Shown here: positions 1,291-49,815 of the stretch, piece by piece
Layout: every line of letters starts with the position of its first letter
Position numbering within the stretch: the first letter of the stretch is position 1
DNA from: Candidatus Kapaibacterium sp.
Lineage (GTDB): Bacteria; Bacteroidota; Ignavibacteria; Kapaibacteriales; UBA2268
NCBI GenBank assembly: GCA_963665665.1
Contig: OY762428.1
Coordinates: 4,160,001 to 4,224,000, forward strand
Reading direction: 5' to 3'
Length of the DNA stretch: 64,000 nucleotides
The notes under the pieces: generated by a model
Databases searched by the model: none
The model's input: only the letters and a program-made list of their open reading frames with translations
What the model was told of the DNA's origin: nothing
Translations under genes and position numbers: made by a program

Positions 1291-4041
1291 ATGATAATAA
1301 AACGATTACTCTACCCTTTATTTATATTGATTTATATTACTGCATTCGGACAGGAAAAATCTGAATGGGAAACAATGATAAATTCTGCGAGAGAAAAGGC
1401 TTATAATTCTCAATTCGACACCGCCCTGGAAGAAGCTTTAGAGTCCGAGGCACTTGCTTTGAAGGAATTTGGTGAAAGCAGCCAATACATGGCTTCAAGC
1501 CTGCAGCTTACAGGGGAAATATACTATATGAAAGCAGATTTTAAAAATGCAATTAAATATTTCGATAAAGCTCTTGAAACCTATTCCCGGTCGATAGGAG
1601 AAAATAATGATCATTATTGTGCTGTGCTAAACAATCTTAGTGCCTGCCTTGAGAAAACCGGAAAATATCCCGAAGCGGAACGAAGGCTTGTCCGGGCAAT
1701 TGAAATAAAAAAGTCAATGCCTGCTACCGACAGTTTATCACTGGCAAAATCGCTTAATAACCTTGGCAGGATTTACCAGGAACTTGGCAAATACTCGGAG
1801 TCGGAAAATGCGTATCTTAATTCGGTTAAAATAAAAAATAAAGCAGGAAAAAACGATGATATTTCCTATGCCAGAACTTTACTCAATATAGGGTCTCTTT
1901 ACATAGAGCTGGGAAATTATAAAAATAGCGCGGAATACCTTGAAGGAGCATTTGATATATTCGAAAAGAATCAAAAAACATTTCCCGGGGAATATTTGAA
2001 TACAATTGTAAATCTTTCAATTGCATATAATGCTCTGGATAACAATGAAAAATCTCATATTTTTATTGAAAAGGCTAAGCAAATCGCAAAAAATCCGGAA
2101 AACATAAATTTCAAGGATCTTGCTGATGCATACTATAACCTGGCGATGATAGAATGGGAAGAGGGAAACGTTGCAAAAGCCGAGGAAAATTTTATGAAGG
2201 CATCCGGGATAATTGAGAATAGATTCGGTAACGGGCATCCCAAATATTCTTCCTGCCTGAATTCCCTGGGAATAATCCGCTGGCATAAGGGCGATTTGAA
2301 TGGTGCTTCGGAATTTCTGCAAAATGCTTTGTTCCTTCGTGGTAAAGTGCTTGGTAAAGATCATCCTGATTATGCTGTTAGCCTGAATAATCTGGCAGGG
2401 CTTATGAAAGATATGAATAAGCCTTCTGAAGCAGAAAAATATTATATCGAAGCGTTTGACAGCTATCTGAATCTTATTGATAGGACTTTTACATTTCTAA
2501 GCGAAAACGAAAGAACTGAGTTTTATGACGAATTGATGGACCGGTTTGAAATGTTTACTTATTTCGTCATTGAACGGCATAAAGAGAACCCTGCGCTTCT
2601 TTCAAAATTATTTGAATACAGGATGGCGACCAAAGCCATCATTATGAGCAGTGCCAGGGATTTGAGGAAGTTGATGTCTGAATCGGAAGACGAGAATACA
2701 ATTTCAAGTTTCGACAATTGGAAAGATATCAGGGAGAACCTGGTTAATATATACTCGATGAGTGCTTCGGAGATCAGTGCAAAAAATATTAATACTGACT
2801 CACTGGAAAAAGCTGCTGAAAAATTAGAGAAGAGCCTGGTAAGAGCCAATACAGAATTTAAAAAATATATCAGCGTTGATAGAAATTCCTGGCAGGATGT
2901 CAGGAATGTACTTGAAGATGATGAAGCGGCTGTTGAAATTATCAGATACCGCCTGTTCGACCGGAGATGGACAGATACAATATTTTATGCTGCTTTAGTA
3001 GTAACCAAGGAGACAAAAGAGCATCCGGAAATAGTTTTGCTTAAAGATGGTTATAAACTCGAAAATAAATTTATAAAAAATTATAAGAATTTTATTCGCC
3101 ACAGAATTGATGATTATGATTCGTACAGGCATTTTTACGAAAAAATTGATGCTAAAACCGGGAATAAAAATAAAATATATTTAAGTGCTGACGGGATTTA
3201 CCATTCGATAAATATAAATACCCTTATTGATAATAACGGGGAATATATTATTGGCAGACAATTCGTTGTGGTTGTAACTAATCTGAATGAGTTGCTATGC
3301 AAGTCAGGCAGCAGAAAACCCCGGAAAGCAGCCTTATACGGTTTCCCTGATTTTGAGTATAAAGCCGGTATTTCCAATGAAGAAAGGCCGCCGGTGAAAA
3401 TACCTGAGATTTCAGGTACCCGGGATGAAGTATTAATTCTGGATACCCTTTTCAGGAAGATGAACATCGATACAGATATTAAGATCAACAGGGATGCTTC
3501 CGAAATGAATTTCAAGCATGTTGGGGCTTATGATATTATTCATTTGGCATCGCATGGTTATTTCCTGCCGGAAAACGAAATGAAAAACCGAAAGAAAGCT
3601 TTTGGTATAAATGTTAAAAAAGCTGCTGTAAATCCATTATTACGTTCCGGAATATTGCTTTCTGGGGCAGCCTGGGCTTTTGGCGAAATGAACGGGGGAA
3701 GCGATAACGGAATACTAACATCATTCGAAGCAATAAATATTAATCTGGAAAGTGCTTCGCTTGTTGTTCTGAGTGCATGCGAAACCGGCCTTGGTAAAGT
3801 GAAAAACGGCGAGGGAGTTTATGGACTGCAAAGAGCCTTTATTGTTGCGGGTGCTGATAACCTGATTATGTCTTTATGGAAAATTGACGACAAAATCACA
3901 ACACATCTGATGGAAAAACTTTATCTGAATATTGTTTCCGGGCAAAATTACAGCGAGGCTCTTAGAAATGCTCAGTTAGCAATTAAATCAGAGTACAGGC
4001 ATCCTTATTTTTGGGGTGCTTTTGTTATTATTGGAAAATAA
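1291..4041 (+). CDS. TPR-repeat protein with C-terminal CHAT (caspase-like) protease domain and N-terminal signal peptide
   Basis: Kinesin-light-chain-type TPRs (SLNNLG.IY, HPDYAVSLNNLA); CHAT catalytic motifs HLASHG and VVLSACETGLG; ends HPYFWGAFVIIG. Confidence 0.9.
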   Translation: MIIKRLLYPLFILIYITAFGQEKSEWETMINSAREKAYNSQFDTALEEALESEALALKEFGESSQYMASSLQLTGEIYYMKADFKNAIKYFDKALETYSRSIGENNDHYCAVLNNLSACLEKTGKYPEAERRLVRAIEIKKSMPATDSLSLAKSLNNLGRIYQELGKYSESENAYLNSVKIKNKAGKNDDISYARTLLNIGSLYIELGNYKNSAEYLEGAFDIFEKNQKTFPGEYLNTIVNLSIAYNALDNNEKSHIFIEKAKQIAKNPENINFKDLADAYYNLAMIEWEEGNVAKAEENFMKASGIIENRFGNGHPKYSSCLNSLGIIRWHKGDLNGASEFLQNALFLRGKVLGKDHPDYAVSLNNLAGLMKDMNKPSEAEKYYIEAFDSYLNLIDRTFTFLSENERTEFYDELMDRFEMFTYFVIERHKENPALLSKLFEYRMATKAIIMSSARDLRKLMSESEDENTISSFDNWKDIRENLVNIYSMSASEISAKNINTDSLEKAAEKLEKSLVRANTEFKKYISVDRNSWQDVRNVLEDDEAAVEIIRYRLFDRRWTDTIFYAALVVTKETKEHPEIVLLKDGYKLENKFIKNYKNFIRHRIDDYDSYRHFYEKIDAKTGNKNKIYLSADGIYHSININTLIDNNGEYIIGRQFVVVVTNLNELLCKSGSRKPRKAALYGFPDFEYKAGISNEERPPVKIPEISGTRDEVLILDTLFRKMNIDTDIKINRDASEMNFKHVGAYDIIHLASHGYFLPENEMKNRKKAFGINVKKAAVNPLLRSGILLSGAAWAFGEMNGGSDNGILTSFEAININLESASLVVLSACETGLGKVKNGEGVYGLQRAFIVAGADNLIMSLWKIDDKITTHLMEKLYLNIVSGQNYSEALRNAQLAIKSEYRHPYFWGAFVIIGK

Positions 4042-4066
4042 TGTTATTCTTACAAGTTAGTATATT

Positions 4067-5488
4067 ATGACTTTTATTAGAAAATTTAAAAAAAATTACT
4101 TTTCTATTCCTGATAATCTGAAATATGAATTCTTCAGGGAAATAACAGAACAGAATGTCAGGTTGTTCAGATATATTCTCGGTATTTTTATTGTCTGGCT
4201 GTCAGTACTAATCGTTATTGATATTCGTGGAGTGTTAAATATAGGTTCGATAGAATCTGAAAATTACTTATATCCTGACATAATAATGCTGATAATTGCA
4301 GTTTTTTCATTTTTTTTATTTCTCCCCCGGAAAAATACGAGAACCATCTCTTTGCGGACAAAAGACCTGCTTATGAATATAATAATATTCACACTAACTA
4401 TCTGGAGTGCTTACGTTAATTATATCGAGGAATTGACTTCTGAATTTGCATATACCCTTATCCTGACATATTTATTGATTATTATGCTGCATATCGGATC
4501 AATATACAAATACCTGTTGTTTACAATTCCTTCTGTTATTTTATACTTAATCTTACATTTCAGTAAGATCGATTTTACAACATTATCACTTGAAATGAAG
4601 TTACCGGTTGTTTCTGTTGTTGTTTTCGGCTTGCCTTTGTATTGGTTTATTTATTCAACAAGGATCAGGAACTTTCTATTCAGGAAGAAGATCTTTGAAG
4701 CATACAGAAAATTGAGAAAGGAAAATTCTAAAAGAATAAAAATTGAAGGCCAGCTTAGAAATTCCAAGATTGAATTACAGGAACAGCTTGAAAAAGAAAA
4801 AGAACTGAACAGTTTGAAAATTGATTTTATAAATATGATTTCTCACCAATACAGAACTCCGTTGACAATAATATTGAGTTCATCCTACCTGATAGATCTG
4901 AGAACAAAGGAATTAAATGATCCGAAAATTGACAGGCATGTGATGAAAATTCAGTCATCAGCCAACCAGATGATAAAGCTTCTTGAAAATGTTATTACTA
5001 TTGGAAAGAACGACTCCGGAAGATCAGAAGAGCATATTACCAACTTTGATCTGATTCAATATGTTAAGAAAATATTCCGGGTTGTTAACGAGGATTATAA
5101 AAATGATCACAAGTTGAAAATTATTACAAGCCATGACGAAGTATATTTAAGAACCAAGTCCTGGCATTTGAACAATATATTATCAAATTTAATTTCTAAT
5201 GCAATTAAATTTTCTCCTGATAATCATCAAACAGATGTTATAATTGATGACAGGGATAAATATATAAACCTGACAGTAAAAGACTATGGTATCGGAATAC
5301 CTGAAGGCCTTTGCCGTAATGGTATGTTTACAGGTTTTATTCGTGGAGAAAACGTCGGTACTATTCCGGGTTTTGGCCTTGGTATGAATATCGTTAAGCA
5401 ATCAGCTGAAAAAATTGATGCAATAATTGACGTAAAAAGCGAAATAAATCAGGGTACTGAAATAAAACTCTCAATTCCTCAACAATAA
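4067..5488 (+). CDS. membrane-bound sensor histidine kinase (HisKA + HATPase)
   Basis: Several N-terminal TM helices; H-box ISHQYRTPL, N-box NLISNAIKFS, G1 DYGIGI, G2 GFGLGM. Confidence 0.88.
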   Translation: MTFIRKFKKNYFSIPDNLKYEFFREITEQNVRLFRYILGIFIVWLSVLIVIDIRGVLNIGSIESENYLYPDIIMLIIAVFSFFLFLPRKNTRTISLRTKDLLMNIIIFTLTIWSAYVNYIEELTSEFAYTLILTYLLIIMLHIGSIYKYLLFTIPSVILYLILHFSKIDFTTLSLEMKLPVVSVVVFGLPLYWFIYSTRIRNFLFRKKIFEAYRKLRKENSKRIKIEGQLRNSKIELQEQLEKEKELNSLKIDFINMISHQYRTPLTIILSSSYLIDLRTKELNDPKIDRHVMKIQSSANQMIKLLENVITIGKNDSGRSEEHITNFDLIQYVKKIFRVVNEDYKNDHKLKIITSHDEVYLRTKSWHLNNILSNLISNAIKFSPDNHQTDVIIDDRDKYINLTVKDYGIGIPEGLCRNGMFTGFIRGENVGTIPGFGLGMNIVKQSAEKIDAIIDVKSEINQGTEIKLSIPQQ

Positions 5489-15582: not shown

Positions 15583-15983
15583 CTTGCAGAGAAAACTATA
15601 AGCCGAATTCTGTCTAAGAGTAAATTAATACTCCGAGGCAACCATTTATCTTAGAATAACGTTGCCGCTATCCTTATGCAGCCTACCCCGGTAACTGTTA
15701 TAAAAACAGGGACGAACAGCCCCTTGCCTGAGGGCCGATACCTGTACTTGGCCTTGCTCCACGCGGGGTTTACCCTGCCGGCACGGTCACCCGTGCCGCG
15801 GTAGGCTCTTACCCTGCCATTTCACCCTTACCCAAAAAGGGCGGTATATTTTCTGTGGCACTATCCGTCAGCTCGTCAACAGACTTGCTGCCTTCGCGTT
15901 ACGAAGCGCGTTGTTCTACGGAGTTCGGACTTTCCTCATCAATCAGTTAATAAATTGACGCGGTTGCCCGTTTTCCCTGCAAG
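15583..15983 (-). ncRNA. rnpB: RNase P RNA (bacterial type A)
   Basis: Minus strand contains GAGGAAAGTCCG, AGTGCCACAGAAAA, GGTAAACCCCG, and 3' ACAGAATTCGGCTTAT; P1 formed by 5' CTTGCAGGGAAAAC and 3' GTTTTCTCTGCAAG. Confidence 0.97.
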
Positions 15984-24916: not shown

Positions 24917-25699
24917 ATTGCCGCCTTGTCTATAGGCATTGATGCCTTGGCCGGAGTTATTGCTGCCTTGGTCCAAATCAAAGCAAGAAAACCACCCCTG
25001 TATTCCCCTCCTACTTTAGGAGGGGATAAGAAGTTAAATATCATAGAATTAACTCCCCCTCCTTCCGAAGGATGCGACCGGGGTGAGGTAGGAGGGGGCG
25101 GAAGCAAAGCACCAATGTTTGATGATATTTCCGCCTTGTTTCGAAGCAAAGAAAGAAAACCACCCCTGTATTCCCCTCCTACATTAGGAGGGGATAAGAA
25201 ATTAAATATCATAAGATTAACTCCCCCTCCTTCCGAAGGATGCGACCGGGGTGAGGTAGGAGGGGTCAGAAGCAAAGAACCAAAGTTTTAACCTATTGCT
25301 GCTTTATTCTTCTTCAAAGCCCTCACCTTCGGGGAGGGTTTGGGAGGGGTCAGGAATATTGCTGCCTTGGTTGAAGTTATTGACGCCTTGGTCGGAGTCA
25401 TTGCCGCCTTGTTTGAAGATAATGAACTCTTGGTCGACACTATTGCAGCAATGTTTTGCTTTATTGATGCCTTGGTCGAAGTTATTGACGCCTTGGTCGG
25501 AGTTATTGATGCCTTGGTCGGAGTTATTGACGCCTTGGTTGAAGTCATTGATGCCTTGGTTGAAGTCATTGACGCCTTGGTTGAAGTCATTGCCGCCTTG
25601 TTTGAAGATAATGATGCCTTGGTCGGAGTCATTGACGCCTTGGTCGGAGTCATTGATGCCTTGGTTGAAGGCATTGAACTCTTGGTCGGAGGCAAAGAA
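24917..25699 (+). repeat. 21-bp tandem repeat array A (consensus ~GCCTTGGT(C/T)G(G/A)AGT(C/T)ATTGA(C/T)), interrupted by REP-like hairpins
   Basis: GCCTTG-type unit starts at 24923, 24944, 24965, 25133, 25301, then every 21 bp from 25364 to 25679 (16 consecutive units). Confidence 0.93.
24986..25278. repeat. two near-identical ~125-bp REP-like hairpin cassettes, 168 bp apart
   Basis: ACCACCCCTGTATTCCCCTCCTAC.TTAGGAGGGGA...CTCCCCCTCCTTCCGAAGGATGCGACCGGGGTGAGGTAGGAGGGG starts at 24991 and 25159. Confidence 0.9.
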
Positions 25700-25702
25700 C
25701 AT

Positions 25703-25997
25703 GTTCAGTAAGATCAACCAAGCGTTCAGTAAGATCAACCAAGCGTTCAGTAAGATCAACCAAGCGTTCAGTAAGGTCAAACAAGTGTTCAGTAAGATCA
25801 ACCAAGCGTTCAGTAAAGCCAACCAAGTGTTCAGTAAAGCCAACCAAGTGTTCAGTAAAGCCAACCAAGTGTTCAGTAAAGCCAACCAAGTGTTCAGTAA
25901 GGTCAACCAAGTGTTCAGTAAAGCCAACCAAGTGTTCAATGAGGCCAAATTTCACTACATTAAGGCCAAACAATGATTCAATAACTCCGGCCAAGGC
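25703..25997 (+). repeat. 21-bp tandem repeat array B (GTTCAGTAA(GAT/AGC)CAACCAAG(C/T)); 11 clean units plus a degenerate tail; inverted homologue of array A
   Basis: GTTCAGTAA at 25703 + 21n up to 25913; degenerate in-phase units continue past 26000. Confidence 0.93.
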
Positions 25998-26550: not shown

Positions 26551-29451
26551 CTACTTTATTGTAATTTCATCTGCAAAAATCCAGGCAAAACCATCGGGGC
26601 CGTGTCCGATGTGCCATTCAGGCAGAGCTCCCCGGCATTTAGCAATAACTTTAACATACCTGGCATTACGCGGGCTGAAGTTTTTAGTAATTTCTTTTGT
26701 TTCAGCAGAATTTCTTTCAATTAGTTCAATCTTTTCCGAAGCAAGCTTTTTAAATTCTTTGCCATCTGCTGATATGAAGTATTCCACTTCTGTCGGATAC
26801 ATTATCCAGCTTCTCTGGTCGCTAAGGAATCCTGTGCTGATTGTTGTTATTTCCCTGACACTTCCAAGATCGACAGTAGCATCCAGGTCTTTGTTTTCAT
26901 ATCCCTGCCAAACATTTGTTTTAAAATCATTGCTACCCTTTATACCGTCAATCAATGCATTGTCGCCTCCGGCATTGTATTGATTGGCATATTGGGTTTC
27001 CAGTTTAATTGACAGGTTCGGATCAATCTTCCTGAATGTTGTTTCCAGAACCGGGCTTTTTTCGTTGCCCTTTTGAGAATAAACTTTCAGATCGGCGTCA
27101 TCTGATATATAAAAAGGAACGGAATAATCTTTATATTCGGAATTATTAAGCGAGTAATATGTTTTTACATTATCATCAATATTTCCAAGGCTTACCAGCG
27201 TACTGTCGCGAAAAGAAAGCTCGCCGGTTTTAACAAATGAAGGAGGGACGATTTGGTAGTCGTCGATTGAAGTCGAGGGAATATTATCATCATGGCTTCC
27301 CCAATAGGTAGGTTTATTTGTCATTGAAAATTCAAGTTTACCGCCTTTCATAATATCGCCGTGTTTTATGAAGGAATAAGGATAATCCTTTCCATTCAAT
27401 TTAACAGATTCAATATATAGATTATTTTCAGAAAGGTTTTTGGCATTAATCCTGAAGGTTTTGCCGCTTTCAAGATTGATAACCGCGCTGCTAACCTGCG
27501 GCGCCCCGATAACATACTCATCCGAACCCGGGGTAACGGGATAAAATCCAATGGCCGAAAAAATATACCAGGCGCTCATCTGGCCGCAATCTTCATTGCC
27601 GGAAATGCCGTCGGGAGAGTTGTTGTAAAGTTCCGTGCAAATTTGCCTTACCAGCTTTTGGGTTTTGTGCGGTTTGTTGATAAAATTGTAGAGATAAGCA
27701 ATATGATGGCTTGGTTCGTTCCCGTGAGCATACTGTCCGATTAAACCGGAAATATCCGATTGGTGCCTTCCGGAGGTCTCTTCATTAGCAGAGAAAAGAG
27801 CATCAAGCTGCTTTTCCATAACATCTTTGCCGCCAATCAACCCGATGAACCCCGAAATATCCTGCGGTACATAAAAACTATACTGCCAGGAATTGGCCTC
27901 GGTATAGTTGAAGTTCACTTCATAAGGATCGAATGGGCTGAACCATGTATTGCGATATCGCGCGCGCATGAATTTTGTATCGGGATCAAGAATATTTTTA
28001 TAGTTCTGTGCACGTTTTACAAATCTTTGGTAATCAGTTTTATTATTTAATTCTTTAGCTATTTGCGCAATAGTCCAGTCGTCATAGGCATATTCAAGGG
28101 TTTTGGAAACCGATTCGGATTCCTCCTCCATCGGTATATAACCGAATTCTTTATATCCCTTCAACCCAAGATGATCCTGCATTGCACTGTGCTTCATTGC
28201 TTTGAAAGCTTCATTGGCATCATAATCGCGGATTCCTTTGATATAGGCATCTGAAATCACGGAAACGCCGTGATAGCCAATCATACATCCCGTGTAGCAA
28301 GCCGAAAGATCCCAGATGGGCATGATTCCGCCTTCGTTATATTTGGCAATCAAAGTTTTAATAAAATCATTCGTTCTTTCCTGTTCAATAATAGTAAACA
28401 GCGGGTGGCTGGCCCTGTAAGTATCCCAAAGTGAGAAAACAGTATAATAATTGAAATCAGAATTTTTATAAATTTTCAGATCAATTCCGCGATAAGAACC
28501 GTCAACATCCTGGTAAAGATTGGGTGCCAGTACGCTATGATATAAAGCTGTGTAGAATACTTCCTTTTCCTCGCGGATTTTAGTTTCTATCTCAATTTTT
28601 CTAAGCTGGCTGTTCCATATTTTCCGGGCATTTTCACGGACATCGGCAAAAGTTTTACCATGGATTTCAGCCTGGTAATTTGCTTTAGCTCCGGCAGCGC
28701 TTACCGGAGATATTGCGATATAAACATTAAGTTCTGCGCTTTCTTTATCGAATGTAAAAGCAGCCTTAGTATTTTTTTCAGCGCCTTCAGGTTTATAATA
28801 TTCAGTATTGATAATCGGCTTCGAGAATTTAATATAAAAGAAAAGTCTCTGATCATTTGCCCAGGCTCTTGAGCGTCGGAGTCCGGTAATTTCAGTATCG
28901 GAGATTTTATTTATTTCACAGTCAAGTAATCTGTCCCTGTGTTCCAGGTCAAGGATAACTACCTGCCCGGCGTTTTCCGGGTAAGTATATCTGTGAATTC
29001 CGCATCTCGGCGTAGTTGTCAGTTCAACTTTTATTTTGCTGTCTTCAAGCATAACAGAGTAATAACCCGGTGATGCAGTTTCATTTTTATGGCTGAATTT
29101 TGAGCAATAACCGATATTACCATCAGCCCCGTTATTGAAAACCACTTTATTTGTGGGCATAAGCAGGATATCACCATAATCCGAGCAGCCAGTACCGCTC
29201 AGGTGGGTATGGGTAAAACCATAAACAACGCTGTCCGAATAATGATAGCCGGAGCAGCCGTCCCAGCCTTCAAGCCGGGTATCGGGGCTAAGCTGCATCA
29301 TGCCGAATGGCAGAGTCGGCCCGGGGAAAGTATGCCCGTGTCCTCCCGTTCCAATAAACGGATTAACATACTCAGTCAGGTCATCCCGGCCAGAAAGAAC
29401 TTTTGACGAAAAAAGTAAACTGATCATTAAAAGTAGAAATATCTTTTTCAT
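26551..29451 (-). CDS. GH92 alpha-1,2-mannosidase with C-terminal Fn3-like and F5/8-type domains
   Basis: YVNPFIGT.GHGHTFPG, HLSGTGCSDYGD, FSLWDTYRA, HGNEPSHH, GNEDCGQMSAWY; signal-peptide start at ATG 29451. Confidence 0.95.
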   Translation of the reverse strand: MKKIFLLLMISLLFSSKVLSGRDDLTEYVNPFIGTGGHGHTFPGPTLPFGMMQLSPDTRLEGWDGCSGYHYSDSVVYGFTHTHLSGTGCSDYGDILLMPTNKVVFNNGADGNIGYCSKFSHKNETASPGYYSVMLEDSKIKVELTTTPRCGIHRYTYPENAGQVVILDLEHRDRLLDCEINKISDTEITGLRRSRAWANDQRLFFYIKFSKPIINTEYYKPEGAEKNTKAAFTFDKESAELNVYIAISPVSAAGAKANYQAEIHGKTFADVRENARKIWNSQLRKIEIETKIREEKEVFYTALYHSVLAPNLYQDVDGSYRGIDLKIYKNSDFNYYTVFSLWDTYRASHPLFTIIEQERTNDFIKTLIAKYNEGGIMPIWDLSACYTGCMIGYHGVSVISDAYIKGIRDYDANEAFKAMKHSAMQDHLGLKGYKEFGYIPMEEESESVSKTLEYAYDDWTIAQIAKELNNKTDYQRFVKRAQNYKNILDPDTKFMRARYRNTWFSPFDPYEVNFNYTEANSWQYSFYVPQDISGFIGLIGGKDVMEKQLDALFSANEETSGRHQSDISGLIGQYAHGNEPSHHIAYLYNFINKPHKTQKLVRQICTELYNNSPDGISGNEDCGQMSAWYIFSAIGFYPVTPGSDEYVIGAPQVSSAVINLESGKTFRINAKNLSENNLYIESVKLNGKDYPYSFIKHGDIMKGGKLEFSMTNKPTYWGSHDDNIPSTSIDDYQIVPPSFVKTGELSFRDSTLVSLGNIDDNVKTYYSLNNSEYKDYSVPFYISDDADLKVYSQKGNEKSPVLETTFRKIDPNLSIKLETQYANQYNAGGDNALIDGIKGSNDFKTNVWQGYENKDLDATVDLGSVREITTISTGFLSDQRSWIMYPTEVEYFISADGKEFKKLASEKIELIERNSAETKEITKNFSPRNARYVKVIAKCRGALPEWHIGHGPDGFAWIFADEITIK

Positions 29452-29648
29452 ATCATAAATCGCATATTTGTTCCTAATATTCATAACTTTCGAATATATG
29501 AAAATATGAGGTATAATAGGAGCAGAAATTGGAATATACCCCAAACCAAAGGAAGGTTCAATCCAATGTATCCTGTCTCCTTGCACTAAGTAATAATTTT
29601 TTGTATATTAAAATCAGTTAATTTATTTACATATTACCCGGAGACAGT

Positions 29649-31526
29649 ATGAGAAAAACATTCACAATTTTAAGTTTTTTCATTTCAATAGTTTTACTCA
29701 ATCCACAAACCCTGTTATCTCAAATTAGCAAAGAGAAATTTTTTAAGGAATATGCCAGGGAATTCCAAAAAGAAAAAATCAGATTCAACTTTGAAGATTA
29801 TCTTTCCAATAAAAATTCAAGCCTGAAAAAAGGAAATAACGATAGCCGTATAACATCCAATGATATTGAAAACCCGGTATCTACACTTGAAAATACCGAG
29901 TCTGAAATATCTATTGCCATAAATCCGCTGGATTCAAACAATATTATTATTTCCCCGATAAAAGGTGATGATCAAGACCCTGAAGGTGTTGCACTTTCCT
30001 GCCCGATATATTATACAAAAGATTTTGGTAAAACATGGAGAACCAGCAGTTTCAAAACCAAGCCTTTAAGGGATTTTGCCCTTGTAGCTGGTGGCGGCGA
30101 CCCCGTTCTGGTATTCGATTCCAAAGGAGTTGCATACTTAACATGGATTAATATATTCCTGACAGCTAAAGAAGATGAGGAACCTGACTCTGCTTTTGTG
30201 GGTATGTACTGGGCGTATTCCGAGGATGGAGGCGAAACATGGAAGCAGGAAGGAGACGGCATTCTTGGGCATTGCTTCGGCGGAAGTGAATATACACCGA
30301 ATCCCAATGAAATGTTCTCAAGGTTTTACGATAAACAATGGATGGCTGCTGACCATTCAGGAGGGCCTTATGATAATTCAGTTTATGTTTGCCTGATGGA
30401 TGTTGATATTGAAACCTATACGGTTCATCAGTATTTATTCAGGAAAGAAAACGGTGCTAAAGATTTTATACAGGTTCCCACCGATATTGCCCCTGCAATG
30501 TTCTATCCACAGTATTCATACCTTGATGTTGACGGATCGGGTACAATCCATTGCACATTTTCAGACTTTATTGGTTTTGATGCCGGATTTTTCCACGTAA
30601 GCTCAACAAACGGTGGCGAAAGTTTTGGTTGGGAAAACGAGATTGCGCTATATGCAGGAACCAACCAGATGACCGGAGTGGTTTCAACAGCCGGTATGGA
30701 AAGGCTATTCCCAGGTTCCTGCCTTGCTGCCGATAAATCTGATTCAGAATATGCCGATAATCTATACTTCAGCTGGACTTCAACAGGCGAAGGCCGGGAC
30801 GACGGAAATGGCCTTGATATCAAATTTTCAAAATCAGAGGATCATGGACTTACATGGTCTGATCCGATAACAATAAATGATGACCCCAAAGGCGTGGATA
30901 TACAGAACTATTACTCGATGATGGCTGTAAGCCCCGACGGCGTAATAGCAATAGCATGGTACGACAGGCGAGATGATGCCAACGATCTGAATACTGATAT
31001 TTACATGACCTATTCATTTGACGGTGGGGAAACCTTCATTCCAAATTTTAAAGTCACATCACAAGCCGCCGATTTTTCAATGATTGATGTGAAGAACCGT
31101 GGTTTCAGTATTGGTGAATACAACCAGATGGTAGCAACAAAAGGCTATGCAATACCTGTTTGGGCTGACGGAAGGAATAACAACGGTGATATAAACGTTT
31201 ATACTGCATTTGTGCCAATCAGCAGAAATCCTGTCTCGGTAGAATCACTATCTCCGGTCAATTCCGGATTCACTCTGCATGAACCTATACCAAATCCTGC
31301 AAAACAGGAAACTAAGATTAGTTTTTCGCTTAGGGAAGGAAGTAATATCAGGATAGATATCGTTGATATACAGGGAAATATTGTTATATCCATGGATAAA
31401 AAACGATATCCTGAAGGTGAAAGTTCGATGAATATTGATCTGTCTGAATTAGCAGACGGAGCCTATTTCTGCTATTTGTTTTCAAATAATGGATATGCGG
31501 TAAAGAAACTGAATGTTGTGAAGTAA
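29649..31526 (+). CDS. T9SS cargo protein: BNR/Asp-box beta-propeller (sialidase-like) plus type A C-terminal sorting domain
   Basis: Asp-boxes TKDFGKTW, SEDGGETW, STNGGESF, SEDHGLTW, SFDGGETF; CTD PNPA...IVDIQG...L.DGAYF...KKLNVVK. Confidence 0.88.
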   Translation: MRKTFTILSFFISIVLLNPQTLLSQISKEKFFKEYAREFQKEKIRFNFEDYLSNKNSSLKKGNNDSRITSNDIENPVSTLENTESEISIAINPLDSNNIIISPIKGDDQDPEGVALSCPIYYTKDFGKTWRTSSFKTKPLRDFALVAGGGDPVLVFDSKGVAYLTWINIFLTAKEDEEPDSAFVGMYWAYSEDGGETWKQEGDGILGHCFGGSEYTPNPNEMFSRFYDKQWMAADHSGGPYDNSVYVCLMDVDIETYTVHQYLFRKENGAKDFIQVPTDIAPAMFYPQYSYLDVDGSGTIHCTFSDFIGFDAGFFHVSSTNGGESFGWENEIALYAGTNQMTGVVSTAGMERLFPGSCLAADKSDSEYADNLYFSWTSTGEGRDDGNGLDIKFSKSEDHGLTWSDPITINDDPKGVDIQNYYSMMAVSPDGVIAIAWYDRRDDANDLNTDIYMTYSFDGGETFIPNFKVTSQAADFSMIDVKNRGFSIGEYNQMVATKGYAIPVWADGRNNNGDINVYTAFVPISRNPVSVESLSPVNSGFTLHEPIPNPAKQETKISFSLREGSNIRIDIVDIQGNIVISMDKKRYPEGESSMNIDLSELADGAYFCYLFSNNGYAVKKLNVVK

Positions 31527-43231: not shown

Positions 43232-44116
43232 TTATTTCATAACATTCAGAAGATCCTTGGACTGTTCCAGAAGTTCTTCGATATCAGAGATCACGAAATC
43301 AATACCGTTGGAGGAAAGTTCGGGGAAACGTTCCGACAGGTACTGCCAAACTTTGCTCTCTTCAATGCTTTCATAGTTCAATCCCTTATAAAAATCTGCA
43401 CCGTGCATTTCACAGATTATTCCTGCCAGGTTCACAATCGCCCCAAGATCTTTATGGTCGCCAAGTTTGTCGGGGTTGTTGTAATAGCTAATTAGTGCGG
43501 CAAGGTCATCAGGAAGTTTCCAGCTTTTGGCAATTTCTTTGCTTACTTCAAGGTGAGTAAGGCCAAATACACTGATTTCGGCTTCAATATCACTTTTTCC
43601 GTTTTCACTTACTTCATCAATTACCTGCAAATAATCTTTTAATTTATACTGGATCATAGCCAATTTACCCATCTGGTAAAGCAATCCCCCAATAAATTCA
43701 GACTCGCTGAAGTTTATTTTCAATTTTTGGGTAATGGATTTTGCAACTATACCGGTACTTGCGGAATGATTCCAGAATTTGTTCATGATTACGGCAGCTT
43801 CTTTTTGTGTGCTAAGCCAGAATTTCGAGAAAATTGATATTCCAAGGACAATATTGGTTAATTTACTAAAGCCAATCATCATTATGGCCTGCTGTATCGA
43901 GGTTATTTCCCTACGGGTGCCGTATAAAGGAGAATTGGCAATCTTAAGTAATTTTAATGTCAGGGATGGGTCTGTTTCAACAATTTTCAGCAGGTCGTGC
44001 ATATTCACATCTTCATTTTCGAGCAGGCTGAGTATTTTAGTTGCAACTGCCGGAAGTGTGGCAAATTCTCTGGTATTAACTATATCATTAACATTGGCCA
44101 TGTCATTAGCATCCAA
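43232..44116 (-). CDS. HDOD domain protein
   Basis: LPAVA, DPSLTLKLLKIANSPLYG...ITSIQQAI..IG, FWNHS, WKLP; HD position reads YQ. Confidence 0.9.
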   Translation of the reverse strand: MDANDMANVNDIVNTREFATLPAVATKILSLLENEDVNMHDLLKIVETDPSLTLKLLKIANSPLYGTRREITSIQQAIMMIGFSKLTNIVLGISIFSKFWLSTQKEAAVIMNKFWNHSASTGIVAKSITQKLKINFSESEFIGGLLYQMGKLAMIQYKLKDYLQVIDEVSENGKSDIEAEISVFGLTHLEVSKEIAKSWKLPDDLAALISYYNNPDKLGDHKDLGAIVNLAGIICEMHGADFYKGLNYESIEESKVWQYLSERFPELSSNGIDFVISDIEELLEQSKDLLNVMK

Positions 44117-44194
44117 TTTTTAAAAAACTTCATTTGAAAATTTACTTAAACCGGAATTAATATGAAAAAAAATATTGAGATACGCAAAAAGTAA

Positions 44195-44416
44195 TTAAAA
44201 TAATATTAATTTTTTCGTGATTCTATCACCGTCAATGTTGATTACGATGAAATAAACCCCTTTTGGCTGTTCAATTGGCAGTAATGAATTATTTTCATAA
44301 CCGTAAGTAGAATAAACAAGCTGCCCTGTAATATTGTAAACGGCAATTGATTTTACGAAACAATCAGACTTAATGATTATTTTACCGCCGGAAATAACAA
44401 TATCTATTTTCTTATC
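44195..44416 (-). CDS. T9SS type A C-terminal sorting domain in the -1 frame of the preceding gene (frameshift extension, no start codon of its own)
   Basis: -1 frame after the A9 run reads DKKIDIVISGGKIIIKSDCFVKSIAVYNITGQLVYSTYGYENNSLLPIEQPKGVYFIVINIDGDRITKKLILF*. Confidence 0.8.
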   Translation of the reverse strand, partial: DKKIDIVISGGKIIIKSDCFVKSIAVYNITGQLVYSTYGYENNSLLPIEQPKGVYFIVINIDGDRITKKLILF

Positions 44417-45336
44417 TTTTTTTTTACCGATGTTGTTATCCGGGGGTAGTAGTAGAGATGCGGCTTAATGCCAAAGTTTGATTCGCTCAGGGTGTAATAA
44501 CCGCCATTTTTAACATCCCAGCAAACTGCCTCGCCCTGGGGTTCGGGAATGTAGGGCAAAATGGCAGGATCACTAATGAATGCTTCTGCAAGCGGTTCGC
44601 CGGTTTTGCGGGAATAATAATAAATCTGGGCATAATCCTTCAGAATTATTTCGAGTCCGTCGGGGCTGATATCACCTCCCACTACTCCGGAACCTTCGAA
44701 TCCCATGTTGCCAATAGTTAATGTTGCAATATGCAGCAGTTCGTTTTTCTTATCGGTATTTTGCGGGTATTCAGCCACGTAAACCCTAACATTTTCCTCC
44801 CTTTTTGTTACAATGTATATATCTTTTGTCAGAGGGTCTATCATCAGAGTTTCCGCATCGCGGCTGCCGTCGGGATAATCAAGTTTTATTTCATCAATGT
44901 CTTTTAATTTTTTATCAAGCGGTACTTTGTCAAAATCAATGTCTGGTTCTTCAATCCGGTAAACATATATTTTGCCCCTTTTTGCATCATTATCGCCTAT
45001 ATCACCAACATAGATATAAGATTTACCGTCTTCAGGACCCGGGCCAACACAAATATCTTCAAGGTCATCTACATTGATTCCGTCAAGTTCAAATTCACCA
45101 ACAAGGTTTCCGTTGCGGTCAATTGCAAATATTCTGTCCTTATCACCCGAATCATTGTGAGTCCAGAAAATCCCGGGGTACTTTCTGCTTGCAGCCAGGC
45201 CGGAGGCTTCGTCAATTTTACCGGAAGCAAGTAATCCCAGGTCCTGCCTTTGGCCGAATTGGGGAACTTTATCTGATGATTCCGAGATAGATAATATTCC
45301 AAAGAAAATCGTCAATATTGCAAGTATTCTGTTCAT
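44404..45336 (-). CDS. exported beta-propeller protein (SdiA-regulated/phytase-like), zero-frame product
   Basis: Signal peptide; EASGLAAS...WTHNDSG, D.EDI, YVGDIGDN, DAETL, GDISPDG, QGEAVCW motifs. Confidence 0.8.
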   Translation of the reverse strand: MNRILAILTIFFGILSISESSDKVPQFGQRQDLGLLASGKIDEASGLAASRKYPGIFWTHNDSGDKDRIFAIDRNGNLVGEFELDGINVDDLEDICVGPGPEDGKSYIYVGDIGDNDAKRGKIYVYRIEEPDIDFDKVPLDKKLKDIDEIKLDYPDGSRDAETLMIDPLTKDIYIVTKREENVRVYVAEYPQNTDKKNELLHIATLTIGNMGFEGSGVVGGDISPDGLEIILKDYAQIYYYSRKTGEPLAEAFISDPAILPYIPEPQGEAVCWDVKNGGYYTLSESNFGIKPHLYYYPRITTSVKKKIRK

Positions 45337-45459
45337 ATCAATTTCAATTTCTCAAACAAACACAACACAAAATAATGAAAACAATTCGAAATATTAATTA
45401 ATTTTTGATATTTTTGATGTCATTATGTGTGTTAATTTTATTGTTAGTTGGAGTTATTG

Positions 45460-46899
45460 ATGACTGGCAAAATTTATTTTTTCATTGTTTTATTGTTACT
45501 ATCGACAGAAATATTAGCAAACGAGCATCCCTTTTCAATCAGAACCGGAAATATTATTGATTCAACCGAGGCGAAATATTTCTCCTTATTCCGTGATTAT
45601 AAAGGATTTGTAAAAGCAGAAATTATTGCTGATAGCGATGGCAGCAGGAAAATAAATATCGTTTATGAGCATGGTGAAGCAGATAAGACTATCGATCTTA
45701 CACCGGATCAATCAAAGAACCTGAGGCTTTATATCGAAAATTACGAGCTTTACCTGCATGAAGATATCGTTTTTGATAACTCGAAAATTCCGGATGCAAT
45801 ACAATTAGATCAGTCAAAGATCAGGGATTTTATCAACCTGGATTATTTTTTCAGGGATATGCCACCTGTAGAAATTGAATTAATTGACGGTGAAATGATA
45901 GATGATTGCGGATTGGTTGCTATTGTCGGGGATACACTAATACTGGCGAAAGAGAGGAACAGGTACAATTGGAGAGATGTTGAAAATTTCATTCCGATTC
46001 CATTTAATTATGTATTTGAATGTATGGTCGACGGCGTCGTTTACGAACTTCATGCCGAACCCGTGGACAGGAATGAACTTATCGATCATTACTCCGGGCT
46101 TCCCTTTTATGACCATCCGAAAAATGACTTCTCAATACCACCGGAAGTAAAAAACAAAAAGGGTTTGATCATGGCAAATGAGAAAACTCAGGTGATATTT
46201 GAAAGAGATAAATTATTTCCGATCCTTTGGAGGAAAAAGGATCTTTCAGATATTTTTTTTCTCAGTTGCTCATTTCAAATAATTACAAAAGAAGTAGTTT
46301 CGGAGAGTAGATTTGAAGTGGAAGATCAAATTCATGTTAAAAGAATATATCATGTCAGGGAACAAAAGAATAATAAAAATTTACAATCTGCTTTAAATTT
46401 AAATCTCGGATATTTTTTTAATAATCATATATTTCTTTATAGCGGATTAAAATTATTAGTATGTAGCAGCAAAGATGAAGAAGAAACATTCCGTGATAAA
46501 GGATTTTCATTAGCAGTTGGTATCGGATGGCATGATTTGCCGATTATTGACAGAATATATCCTGATCTGAGTTTTGGGATTATTCTTGAATGTGATTACA
46601 ACTTTTACAATTTTTACCACCAATTGTCAAGTCAGGGTGAAAAAACCTGGATACCAGAGCTTGTTTTGATTAAAGAAAAAAATTATCATTATAGCTTTTC
46701 TTTCAAACCTTATAGTAAATATAATTTTTTCGACAATATATCAGTGACTGCCACTTTTGTTTATGAATATCATCCTGTCAGTAATTATAGCACAAGTCAG
46801 TATATTTCCGATAGCCTTTGGCCCTCCTACTGGGAAATGATAAAAGATCAGAAATATTCCGGAATTGGCTTCAGTATTGGGATAGAATATATACTATAA
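45460..46899 (+). CDS. exported/outer-membrane protein, paralog 1 of 3
   Basis: Signal peptide; conserved N-terminal domain; C-terminal beta-barrel-like half ending IGIEYIL. Confidence 0.7.
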   Translation: MTGKIYFFIVLLLLSTEILANEHPFSIRTGNIIDSTEAKYFSLFRDYKGFVKAEIIADSDGSRKINIVYEHGEADKTIDLTPDQSKNLRLYIENYELYLHEDIVFDNSKIPDAIQLDQSKIRDFINLDYFFRDMPPVEIELIDGEMIDDCGLVAIVGDTLILAKERNRYNWRDVENFIPIPFNYVFECMVDGVVYELHAEPVDRNELIDHYSGLPFYDHPKNDFSIPPEVKNKKGLIMANEKTQVIFERDKLFPILWRKKDLSDIFFLSCSFQIITKEVVSESRFEVEDQIHVKRIYHVREQKNNKNLQSALNLNLGYFFNNHIFLYSGLKLLVCSSKDEEETFRDKGFSLAVGIGWHDLPIIDRIYPDLSFGIILECDYNFYNFYHQLSSQGEKTWIPELVLIKEKNYHYSFSFKPYSKYNFFDNISVTATFVYEYHPVSNYSTSQYISDSLWPSYWEMIKDQKYSGIGFSIGIEYIL

Positions 46900-47317
46900 T
46901 TATCAAGAGGTTAAAATGAGATACACTAAATTATTCGTTTCTATACTAATTATTCTTTTCTTTACTTGTTTTGAATTATTATCAATTGAATTTTCGCAAC
47001 GCACTGGCAACACAATTGATTCAACCGAGGCGAAATATTTCTCCTTATTCCGTGATTATAAAGGATTTGTAAAAGCAGAAATTATTGCTGATAGCGATGG
47101 CAGCAGGAAAATAAATATCGTTTATGAGCATGGTGAAGCAGATAAGACTATCGATCTTACACCGGATCAATCAAAGAACCTGAGGCTTTATATCGAAAAT
47201 TACGAGCTTTACCTGCATGAAGATATCGTTTTTGATAACTCGAAAATTCCGGATGCAATACAATTAGATCAGTCAAAGATCAGGGATTTTATCAACCTGG
47301 ATTATTTTTTCAGGGAT
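45556..47317 (+). repeat. exact 303-bp direct repeat (45556-45858 = 47015-47317), with a diverged third copy near 48478-48780
   Basis: Compared by eye from ATTGATTCAACCGAGGCG to TTTTTCAGGGAT. Confidence 0.9.
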
Positions 47318-48364
47318 CTGCCTGTTATTGAAATTCAACTTATCGACGGTGAAAGTATCGATGATGTTCGATTGGTAGCTGTTTTTAACGAAACACTGAT
47401 ATTAGCTCCGGATAGAGAAAAATATAACTGGCGGGATGTTTCAATATATATTCCTGTTTCATTCAAATATGTATTTGAATGTATGGTCGACGGCTCCGTT
47501 TATGAGCTTTATGCCGAACCCGGGGACAGGAATGAACTTATCGATCATTACTCCGGGCTTCCCTTTTATGACCATCCGAAACATCATATTTCAGTAACTC
47601 CTGATATTACTGTAAACATGAGTACTATTCGAAAAAATGAGGTTAAAGATATTGAATACATGCCTTACAAGGTTGTATCATATAGTAAACCATGGAAAAA
47701 AAGAGAATTAAATGGGATGTTCTTTATTGATTGTTCGTATCAGAAAGTTGCCAAGCAGGTAACTAAGGAACAAAAGTATGATATTGATGATATATTTTTC
47801 GAGGAGAGAGTTTATCATATTAAAGAACTAAAGGATAATAAAAGTAACCAGACTGCTGTAAACCTGGATTTCGGTTATTACCTGACCAATAATATTATTT
47901 TATACACGGGATTAAAATACCTCGCGGCAACTTCTGTTGATGATGAAGAGACATTCGAAGATAAAGGCTGGGCTTTAACACTGGGAACAGGCTGGGACGA
48001 TATTCCTTTCCTTGCTGAACTACAGCGTGATTTATATTTTGGTGTGAAACTAGAGGTTAATTATAATTTCAATACATTTCACCATCAGTTATCCAGCCAG
48101 GGAAAAACAACATGGATACCGGAAATTGTTGAGATCGAAGACGAAAATAATCATATCAGTTATAGTGTAAAGCCTTATGTCAAATATTGTTTTTACGATG
48201 ATTTCTCAGTTTTTGCTGAATACGTATATGAATATCATCCAAACAGTGCTTATAAAACCCGTGACTATATTGCAGATAATCATTGGCCTTCGTATTGGGA
48301 AATGGTTAACGGGCAGAAATATTCAGGAACGGGATTTAGTTTTGGAATATTATATTTATTGTAA
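46916..48364 (+). CDS. exported/outer-membrane protein, paralog 2 of 3
   Basis: Same architecture; 303 bp identical to paralog 1. Confidence 0.7.
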   Translation: MRYTKLFVSILIILFFTCFELLSIEFSQRTGNTIDSTEAKYFSLFRDYKGFVKAEIIADSDGSRKINIVYEHGEADKTIDLTPDQSKNLRLYIENYELYLHEDIVFDNSKIPDAIQLDQSKIRDFINLDYFFRDLPVIEIQLIDGESIDDVRLVAVFNETLILAPDREKYNWRDVSIYIPVSFKYVFECMVDGSVYELYAEPGDRNELIDHYSGLPFYDHPKHHISVTPDITVNMSTIRKNEVKDIEYMPYKVVSYSKPWKKRELNGMFFIDCSYQKVAKQVTKEQKYDIDDIFFEERVYHIKELKDNKSNQTAVNLDFGYYLTNNIILYTGLKYLAATSVDDEETFEDKGWALTLGTGWDDIPFLAELQRDLYFGVKLEVNYNFNTFHHQLSSQGKTTWIPEIVEIEDENNHISYSVKPYVKYCFYDDFSVFAEYVYEYHPNSAYKTRDYIADNHWPSYWEMVNGQKYSGTGFSFGILYLL

Positions 48365-48381
48365 TTTTTTAAGAGGACAAG

Positions 48382-49815
48382 ATGAATTTTAAAATATCCA
48401 TATTAGTAATAGTCTCAATTTTCATTTCATCCACAGAATTATTCCCGCTTGAATTTTCGCAGCGTACCGGCAACACAATTGATTCTGCCGAGGCGAAATA
48501 TTTCTCGCTGTTCAGGGATTATAATGGATTTGTAAAAGCAGAAATAATTGGTGATAGCGATGAAAGCAGGAAAATAAACATTGTTTATGAGCAGGGAAAA
48601 ACAGACAAAACTATTGACCTTGCCCCGGATCAATCGAAAAACCTTAGGCTTTATATTGATAATTACGAGTTTTACCTGCACGAGGATATTGTTTTTGATA
48701 ACTCGAAAATTCCGGAAGCTATACAAATAGACCAGGCTAAGATAAGAGATTTTATTAACCTTGACTTTTTTTTCAGGGATCTGCCTGTTAGCCATATTCA
48801 GCTTATTAACGGAGATGAACTGGACGATTATGCTTTGGTAGCTGTAAGCAAGGATACATTATTTATTTTGCCGGACAGAAAAAAATATAACTGGAGAGAC
48901 AATTTTGAAATTATTCCGCTGCACTTTAAATATGTTAATGCATGCAATGTTGAAGATGTGGATTATCTTTTTTACTACGACAGTTCATATAAAACAAAGC
49001 TTACCACAAGATACGAAGGAGTTCCCTTTTTTGACAGAATAAGAAACGAGGTTAATATGCCTCCGGATATTAATAATAACCGCGATCGGATTATGGACAA
49101 TGAGATCAGGGATATTGAGTATGATTCAACAAATATTTCTCAGTTTCATTGGGTTAACAATAATAAAAGCGGCCATTTCTTTGTTAATGTCAATTACCAG
49201 GATGTATCTAAAAGCCCCATGAAGGAACAGAGCTTTCATATTGATGATAGTTACTATGCGAAAAGGATCTATGAACTTGAAGAAAAAAAGGATAAACCAA
49301 GTTCTCAACAGTCCTTCAACCTTAATTTCGGTTATTATTTGAATAATACTTTTATGATTTTCGCCAACTACAAAATGCTGGCCGAAAGCAAAGAAAATGA
49401 TGATATTTTTCATGATGAAGGTTCTGCAATCGGGCTTGGGGTGGGGGTGGATGTAATACCATTCCTTAGCAATAAGATCAACCGGCTGTCGATATACACG
49501 AAAATAAGCCTTGATTATAATCTGTATACCTACCATATACAGATTGTAGATGCCCCGGGTGTATGGGGCCCTGATCAGGGGGAATACAGTGTTGATAATA
49601 ATCACCTGAGTATTACTATCGAACCGCGTTTGCAGTATTTGATATATAAAACTTTCGGTATAAATCTTTCAGGAGTATTTGAATATCATCCTTCTCAAAG
49701 TTATACTACTTTAAATCATCTTGGTAATACGGAGTGGGACATAAACTGGAAGGCAAAAGACGGGCAGCAATTTATCAGTTTTGGTTTTAATATAGGGCTG
49801 ATACTACATATTTAA
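48382..49815 (+). CDS. exported/outer-membrane protein, paralog 3 of 3
   Basis: Same architecture; N-terminal domain close but not identical to paralogs 1 and 2. Confidence 0.7.
   Translation: MNFKISILVIVSIFISSTELFPLEFSQRTGNTIDSAEAKYFSLFRDYNGFVKAEIIGDSDESRKINIVYEQGKTDKTIDLAPDQSKNLRLYIDNYEFYLHEDIVFDNSKIPEAIQIDQAKIRDFINLDFFFRDLPVSHIQLINGDELDDYALVAVSKDTLFILPDRKKYNWRDNFEIIPLHFKYVNACNVEDVDYLFYYDSSYKTKLTTRYEGVPFFDRIRNEVNMPPDINNNRDRIMDNEIRDIEYDSTNISQFHWVNNNKSGHFFVNVNYQDVSKSPMKEQSFHIDDSYYAKRIYELEEKKDKPSSQQSFNLNFGYYLNNTFMIFANYKMLAESKENDDIFHDEGSAIGLGVGVDVIPFLSNKINRLSIYTKISLDYNLYTYHIQIVDAPGVWGPDQGEYSVDNNHLSITIEPRLQYLIYKTFGINLSGVFEYHPSQSYTTLNHLGNTEWDINWKAKDGQQFISFGFNIGLILHI

Follow-up and report, generated by a model that had tools for sequence, protein, structure and literature searches.

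Runs of A or T within coding sequences are described sites of slippage in several bacterial genes. In living bacteria, 9 A or T in a row lead to efficient slippage of RNA polymerase, by which up to 6 nt are added (PMC5009743). A run of 9 A/T is used for polymerase slippage by the dnaX gene of Thermus thermophilus (PMC5009743), and two-ORF (open reading frame) arrangements with A7 to A10 were described for dnaX of the Chlorobi group (PMC3711429). [quoted passage not shown] Here, a related arrangement is described for a gene of Candidatus Kapaibacterium sp., located on contig OY762428.1 (assembly GCA_963665665.1). The analyzed DNA stretch comprises 64,000 nucleotides (positions 4,160,001 to 4,224,000 of the contig) and is referred to as the window. 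[quoted passage not shown]

The tssM genes share with the window gene a poly-A tract in front of a premature stop, a C-terminal domain in the other frame and, as proposed for the window gene, two product lengths per gene (PMC4256274). Their homologs occur in opposite frame states (PMC4256274), and so do the window gene and its relative L003 compared to the relatives L022 and L007. They differ in that tssM has an A11 tract, encodes a structural component of the machine and shows a slippage that has been measured (PMC4256274), whereas the window gene has A9, encodes a cargo whose secretion signal would be switched, and is known from sequence alone. The dnaX genes of T. thermophilus and of the Chlorobi resemble it in the run of 9 A/T and in the two products with a shared N-terminus that are proposed for the window gene (PMC5009743, PMC3711429), and the Chlorobi precedent comes from a phylum close to the labels of the neighbours of the propeller family. 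In Thermus, however, the zero frame gives the long product and slippage the short one (PMC5009743), whereas the zero frame of the window gene gives the short one; furthermore, dnaX is a cytoplasmic replication gene.

A homopolymer in a gene for an exported protein, with relatives in and out of frame, is also known from the capD autotransporters of Campylobacter and from the poly-A tract of p78 in Mycoplasma, and the export module is C-terminal and encoded behind the tract, as in the window (PMC7168839, PMC3711429). These tracts switch the whole protein off (PMC7168839, PMC3711429), whereas a switch in the window gene would change the location and not the presence of the protein, because the part upstream of the tract by itself encodes a whole folded domain, and domains of this kind also occur naturally with no CTD. 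Compared to ordinary T9SS type A cargo, the genuine type A CTD and the leader-like N-terminus are shared, but the CTD is out of frame.

The mechanism would be akin to known poly-A slippage and phase-type switches (tssM, spa13/mxiE, dnaX and phase-variable autotransporters), and new would be the target, since in a cargo that remains a complete domain when truncated it is the T9SS sorting signal that would be switched. No report of a T9SS CTD toggled by a frameshift was found in the literature, subscription-only literature lying outside the scope of the search. Two features expected of slippage-type genes were found, a run of at least nine A within the coding sequence and, in the frame reached by one added A, an open CTD of 73 codons. 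In-frame and out-of-frame homologs, as expected for phase-type switching, were also found, across deep divergence only. The best-matching protein other than the window's own is just 55% identical.

The A9 tract and the out-of-frame sorting domain

The propeller gene is located on the minus strand (44404..45336) and encodes 310 amino acids in its zero frame, with the C-terminal end TTSVKKKIRK and a TAG stop codon at 44404-44406. Its last codons are ACA TCG GTA AAA AAA AAG ATA AGA AAA TAG. The nine consecutive A within GTA AAA AAA AAG (44417..44425, minus strand, T9 on the plus strand) form the proposed slippage site and contain a zero-frame A_AAA_AAG heptamer. Four 9-base homopolymers and no run of 10 or more are present in the window, and the tract at 44417-44425 is the only 9-run within coding sequence. 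In the -1 frame, as it would be read after one extra A, translation from 44425 to 44195 gives 76 residues without an internal stop, ending in KKLILF in front of a TAA stop at 44195..44197 (minus strand).

The 73 codons at 44198..44416 (minus strand, -1 frame) encode a K-rich linker and a bona fide T9SS type A CTD. This peptide is matched above the curated cut-offs by TIGR04183 (40 bits, cut-off 23, E 2.8e-10) and by PF18962 (29.5 bits, cut-off 27, E 9.2e-7). Its stop-to-stop ORF (44195..44464, 89 amino acids) is closed by a TAA (44465..44467, minus strand) 13 codons upstream of the tract, which leaves the CTD frame without a start of its own. A separate CTD gene was considered and rejected, as the frame is closed by this TAA and no ORF of at least 40 amino acids starting with ATG, GTG or TTG exists in it. 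Relative to the cargo, the CTD thus lies in the -1 frame and becomes C-terminal only given a frame change at the A9 tract. The preliminary description of this locus, made from the sequence alone, had named the same ORF end, codons, A9 tract, CTD stop and upstream TAA, had called the -1 frame an uninterrupted type A CTD of 73 residues, and had concluded that it cannot be a separate gene; all of these points proved correct.

Chance does not explain an out-of-frame CTD at this place, because only two of the 640 six-frame stop-to-stop ORFs of at least 40 amino acids in the window match a CTD profile at E<0.01. One is the ORF at 44195..44464, the other the CTD that the gene at 29649-31526 (plus strand), an ordinary BNR/sialidase-like T9SS cargo gene (PF18962, 47.3 bits), carries in frame. 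No further out-of-frame CTD was found among the 640 ORFs. The cargo gene at 29649-31526 adjoins a gene similar to alpha-mannosidases of glycoside hydrolase family 92 (GH92; 26551-29586), which itself has no CTD, and a 108-residue ORF downstream of the GH92 gene gave no CTD match. For the profile comparison, a local CTD profile trained on NYPNPF-type CTDs, which scored the window CTD at just 11.1 bits, was replaced. The G+C content at third codon positions (GC3) of the -1-frame CTD is 0.288, compared to 0.287 for the in-frame CTD at 31284-31523, and there is no compositional sign of decay.

Three further searches were negative. The Pfam scan of 50 window genes, which covers only these 64 kb, contained no T9SS components. 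A terminator-like site was not found on the minus strand in the region 43900-45600, which includes the stretch between the zero-frame stop and the CTD stop, and this result is uninformative. An in-frame copy or a near-identical CTD among longer proteins was found for none of 127 candidates at E<=0.001, which is weak evidence.

The uninterrupted tract stands out from the other Lys-coding stretches of the window. Six runs of at least three Lys occur in the 50 window genes, and the other five are all interrupted by AAG, with a longest A-run of 6, even though AAA makes up 76% of the Lys codons.

The 310-residue product is a beta-propeller according to the AlphaFold2 model (mean predicted local distance difference test score 89.2, predicted template modelling score 0.86). 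A likely Sec signal peptide was judged by eye at about residues 1-22 (MNRILAILTIFFGILSISESSD; approximately 45271..45336, minus strand). The N-terminus is hydrophobic and leader-like by eye, and a helix at residues 3-16 followed by a low-confidence stretch at 16-21 is seen in the model. The top Foldseek matches of the model in a search against the PDB were NHL and YjiK propellers, among them 3qqz, the C-terminal domain of YjiK (E 1.1e-8, template modelling score 0.64 normalised by target), and the NHL domain of TRIM2 (E 1.0e-8). No Pfam or NCBIfam family was matched by the protein at E<=0.01, and a profile of the propeller found no PDB sequence below E 0.12. The modelled fold is therefore similar to the YjiK/SdiA-regulated and NHL-type propellers, without membership at the level of sequence profiles.

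The propeller belongs to a large family, with 7171 relatives out of 8000 scored candidates and 10062 cluster representatives at E<=0.001. The source names of the matches include Ignavibacteria, Kapabacteria, Chlorobi, Calditrichota, KSB1, Latescibacterota, Bacteroidota and others. It is a family of the Fibrobacteres-Chlorobi-Bacteroidetes (FCB) group without a Pfam or NCBIfam model. It occurs in two natural forms, one of about 300-330 amino acids without a CTD and one of about 380-415 amino acids with PF18962.

Relatives of the propeller gene

Relatives at the DNA level were collected by scanning genome contigs with an alignment of 18 sequences. At least 600 stretches were matched, at least 576 were confirmed as relatives and 80 loci were kept, the window's own genome being absent from these. 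The loci were sorted by a purpose-made anchor motif, and the 80 comprise 45 short forms, 23 long forms, 5 cut by the contig end and 7 without the anchor. One of the 23 long loci, L043, has 17 internal stops in its reading and was left out of the tree; its tblastn match (3001-4252) covers 1252 nt for an alignment of 295 residues, and the gene may be interrupted or the match composite. In L018, from a Microscillaceae metagenome-assembled genome (MAG), a second full propeller copy lies directly downstream in another frame (3861-4838), the two being tandem paralogs.

In the short loci and in the seven loci without an anchor, other-frame ORFs of at least 45 amino acids abutting the stop were inspected. 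By eye, they are CTD-like in L003 and L025 only, for which alone family searches were made; the others are downstream genes or unrelated ORFs. In L003 (JAJRTW010000132.1), whose protein is 49% identical to that of the window, the zero frame ends GAG GTA AAA AAA AAG AGC CGG GGC AAA TAA. The -1 frame is open for 85 codons past the end of the tract up to a stop at 4179-4181, the whole ORF having 91 codons. At homologous junctions, both genes thus carry an identical 12-nt sequence, GTA AAA AAA AAG, and relate the two frames in the same way. When six in-frame CTDs of the clade described below, among them neither the window nor L003, were combined into a profile, the L003 peptide scored 17.9 bits and that of the window 15.6 bits, compared to 5.3 bits for the best of 400 shuffled sequences.

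The case of L025, from an Ignavibacteriales MAG (649-kb contig), is different. Its frameshift is located at an A7 tract inside the propeller (3820-3850), where the zero frame ends in GYYTLSEEKK before the last strand, and the -1 frame carries this last strand and a NYPNPF-type CTD (TIGR04183, 38.5 bits). The site is unlike that of the window, and the frameshift is probably an assembly error or belongs to a pseudogene.

The stretch after the propeller was compared in 80 sequences, the window and 79 loci (L073 was without the anchor), and in four of them an A-run of at least nine lies within 135 nt of the propeller anchor. These are the window and L003, both with A9 and the CTD in the -1 frame, L007 with A9 (GAT AAA AAA AAA GAT) and the CTD in frame, and L022 with A10 (AGC GTA AAA AAA AAA GTA AAA AAA GAT) and the CTD likewise in frame. 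The L022 tract is the in-frame form of the window motif with one more A. The in-frame CTDs of L022 and L007 pass TIGR04183 (31.9 and 33.5 bits), and the linker that read-through would produce in the window, KKKDKK, resembles the in-frame linkers KKKVKKD of L022 and KDKKKDE of L007. All four sequences fall into one clade of 16 rows, which is supported by 98% in the Shimodaira-Hasegawa-like approximate likelihood ratio test on a tree of 90 rows. L007, L015 and L022 are labelled 'uncultured Hyphomicrobiales bacterium' although they carry an FCB-type T9SS cargo gene, and these labels look doubtful.

The window and L003 come from distant genomes, as judged from the propellers and from the arginyl-tRNA synthetase of L003, which is 66.5% identical to that of the window across 430 residues. 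RtcB of L022 is 61-64% identical to that of the window. No synteny around the propeller gene was found between the window and L003, L007 or L022. A recent private mutation, with all orthologs in frame and no conserved A-run, had been named as the outcome that would speak against a switch; instead, L003 shows the same A9 and a -1-frame CTD. The recurrence in relatives is real at the level of the compared sequences, and the out-of-frame layout is not private to the window genome.

The same ending was also found in the protein data. The anchor motif was present in 311 of 328 fetched proteins, comprising 152 short and 159 long forms. Ten of the 152 short forms carry KKK past the last strand just before the stop, namely P0002 (the window protein), P0007, P0008, P0070, P0113, P0167, P0270, P0271, P0272 and P0275 (L003), and among the 159 long forms a linker with KKK is seen in only 3 (P0088, corresponding to L007, P0134, corresponding to L022, and P0180). 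The closest relatives of P0134 are almost all short and stop right after the junction KKK. On a tree of 53 rows the K-tail label is clustered, as it requires 5 changes compared to a mean of 9.3 after shuffling, and none of 500 shuffles was as low. Four diverged K-tail proteins form a clade with 96% support, which is sister to P0134. For two of the ten K-tail genes, those of the window and L003, the DNA was examined, and the -1-frame CTD is open in both.

A further pair of proteins was noticed. P0012 (long, 394 amino acids) and P0019 (short, 331 amino acids) are near-identical (branches of 0.064 and 0.069) and diverge in the linker after TSVAN, from where P0012 runs into its CTD and P0019 has just 13 more, unrelated residues. 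The break resembles a further frameshift in the linker, here in another sub-family.

Proposed isoform switch and competing explanations

A conserved slippery A-tract at the boundary of cargo and CTD, acting as an isoform switch, is the favoured reading, and its chances are judged to be about even. The conserved A9 would separate a Sec-exported beta-propeller cargo domain from its T9SS sorting domain. By standard decoding, the stop four codons past the tract would give a CTD-less protein, which is expected to stay periplasmic. Slippage of RNA polymerase on the 9-A/T hybrid, adding one A, would give a transcript that reads into the CTD and hence a form that the T9SS could export or anchor. The ribosome could reach the CTD as well, by a -1 slip on A_AAA_AAG, which is the less likely route. 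At the RNA level polymerase slippage is favoured, because the window gene would need exactly one added A, the commonest slippage product. Changes of tract length between lineages may in addition form a heritable switch biased to ON or OFF, because the CTD behind the tract is out of frame in the window and in L003 (both A9) but in frame in L022 (A10) and L007 (A9). Each of the two locations is a plausible functional state, as members of the family with and without a CTD both occur as ordinary genes (at least 45 short and at least 23 long loci).

A stronger version would be that a clade of FCB-group T9SS cargo genes keeps the CTD permanently out of frame behind a conserved GTA-A8-G and that slippage of RNA polymerase sets the ratio of periplasmic to exported or surface-anchored propeller, the recoded part being the secretion signal itself; in this case the ten K-tail proteins would be misannotated halves of such genes. 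This version is tentative and rather doubtful.

Several points weigh against a conserved switch. Slippage itself, the production of both isoforms and their locations are inferred from DNA sequence only. The out-of-frame state was seen at the DNA level in two genomes only, while two relatives are in frame, and the DNA examined covers two of the ten K-tail proteins. The tree does not resolve a sister relation of the window and L003, which lie in a polytomy within the clade, so that one long-kept state and two recent events are indistinguishable. The -1 peptide of L003 does not reach the curated cut-offs (13.7 bits and E 0.078 for PF18962, no match at E<=0.01 for TIGR04183), although some in-frame CTDs of the clade also miss the Pfam cut-off (L007 with 17.0 bits and L015 with 18.8 bits). 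The clade members L026, L040 and L045 have K-rich ends and no CTD downstream in any frame, which is the pattern that decay after a frameshift would leave. In addition, A-run avoidance is not strict, as in-frame A8 runs are tolerated at 12 places in the window. Ascertainment bias accounts in part for the long A-run of the frameshifted cases. With GTA making up 0.28 of the Val codons and AAA 0.76 of the Lys codons, codon usage by itself gives a VKKK peptide a run of at least nine about 1 time in 6.

The preliminary description had proposed that localisation is controlled by recoding. In favour of this, the arrangement recurs in L003 and K-tail forms recur in the clade, but the out-of-frame state is not universal, with L022 and L007 being in frame. 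Recoding is no better match for this mix of in-frame and out-of-frame genes than slippage of RNA polymerase, a phase-type switch or repeated loss at a hot spot.

Hot-spot loss of the CTD without a selected function is the first alternative to be considered and is regarded as unlikely. Here, the linker A-run would lose one A by replication slippage, the stranded CTD would be too young to have decayed and any read-through would be noise. Switching between long and short forms is indeed frequent in the family, as the label 'long' needs 14 changes on the 53 rows and both classes are numerous among the loci. The K-rich ends of L026, L040 and L045, the frameshift of L025 at a different A7 inside the propeller, the near-identity of P0012 and P0019 up to the linker, and the mixture of in-frame and out-of-frame tracts among relatives would all be accounted for. 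Against this, the identical event would have had to happen twice, independently and very recently, in genomes that are distant from each other, because both CTD frames are still open (73 and 85 codons); by our own estimate, a neutral frame of this length would gain a stop or an indel after a few percent divergence. Furthermore, tracts of at least nine have stayed uninterrupted in four diverged lineages, though a single synonymous AAG would stabilise them, and K-tail forms outnumber in-frame K-linker forms by 10 to 3. The open and still recognisable stranded CTDs, the maintained tracts and the 10:3 ratio are three points against pure decay which are suggestive, not decisive.

A homopolymer consensus error, in which the true tract would be A10 with an ordinary in-frame CTD and one A would have been dropped by the assembly, is less probable still. 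The under-calling of long homopolymers is a typical error of long-read assemblies. The window gene lies on a single contig of 5,458,198 bases, which suggests such an assembly, and the tract belongs to the longest homopolymer class of the window, in which runs of 10 or more are absent. In the same direction, the L025 frameshift at A7 looks like a homopolymer error in MAGs of this kind. However, from the distribution of run lengths just about two runs of at least 10 would be predicted per 64 kb by extrapolation, so that their absence carries little weight. All 12 of the coding A/T 8-runs in the window lie in intact ORFs, and in the 50 scanned window genes the domain matches are full-length and no split genes were seen. 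An identical A9 is present in L003, whose contig name (k141_...) suggests a short-read assembly, and the ten K-tail proteins come from several independent sources (NCBI, JGI, ENA and Logan).

Programmed -1 ribosomal frameshifting in the classical dnaX manner, with slippage of tandem Lys-tRNAs and an incidental A9, is the least probable of the explanations for the main route. In dnaX, an upstream stimulator resembling a Shine-Dalgarno (SD) sequence and a downstream stem-loop accompany the slippery site. A modest stem-loop begins 12 nt past the tract in the window (-15.9 kcal/mol, z -2.04; 8 of 200 shuffled sequences fold as well), but this structure is not conserved, since the corresponding region of L003 gave z +0.08 with 98 of 200 shuffled sequences folding as well, and the predicted structures differ. 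An SD-like element at dnaX-like spacing was found neither in the window nor in L003, where a GAGG directly abuts the tract. The zero frame of both genes does read A_AAA_AAG. This heptamer is the natural dnaX site, and in E. coli it shifts much more readily than the heptamers related to it (PMC5009743). As in E. coli dnaX and in insertion sequence (IS) elements (PMC5009743), the -1 frame supplies an alternative C-terminus. High shiftiness needs a single tRNA-Lys, which is present in only about half of the bacteria (PMC5009743), and no tRNA genes were detected in the 64-kb window by ARAGORN. Unlike in E. coli dnaX, no conserved equivalent of the stimulators was found in the window and L003. The heptamer alone is also not special here, because seven of its eight in-frame copies in 49 window genes lie in ordinary genes. 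The site is distinguished by its run length, which matters for polymerases, and not by the heptamer. The dnaX-like ribosomal frameshift suggested in the preliminary description is not supported by these results.

Genomic context and meaning for T9SS cargo

Divergently oriented from the propeller gene, three tandem paralogs of about 480 amino acids each are encoded on the plus strand at 45448-49815 (45448-46899, 46916-48364 and 48382-49815). The N-terminal regions of the first two are near-identical across about 100 residues, which suggests a recent duplication or gene conversion. The sole family signal of these paralogs is a weak hint of an outer membrane protein (OMP) beta-barrel (PF13505, E 0.0019, below the cut-off).

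Elsewhere in the window, a bacterial class A RNase P RNA was identified on the minus strand (15583-15979, 283 bits), which is the sole Rfam match at the gathering threshold. A tandem-repeat block at 24958-25938 consists of a 168-nt unit present twice (90% match) and of 21-nt arrays with 15.3 and 11.3 copies. Several frames are open on both strands of this block, giving many overlapping ORFs with only a weak Alanine_zipper match, and the block may encode a repetitive protein or be non-coding.

If the isoform switch is true, one gene could suffice to adjust where a protein is located, with the export tag being switched instead of the protein itself. Periplasmic and T9SS-exported forms would arise from one promoter, with a ratio set by polymerase slippage or by the heritable length of the tract, and T9SS cargo would join the short list of secretion genes with poly-A slippage, which comprises spa/mxi of the type III secretion system (T3SS) and tssM of the T6SS. 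Gene callers would list such a gene as a 'hypothetical protein' of about 310 amino acids and miss the CTD, so that T9SS secretomes would be under-counted in MAGs of Ignavibacteria, Kapabacteria and Bacteroidota. If only hot-spot decay is at work, the tract would still represent a simple and repeated route of CTD loss in this propeller family.

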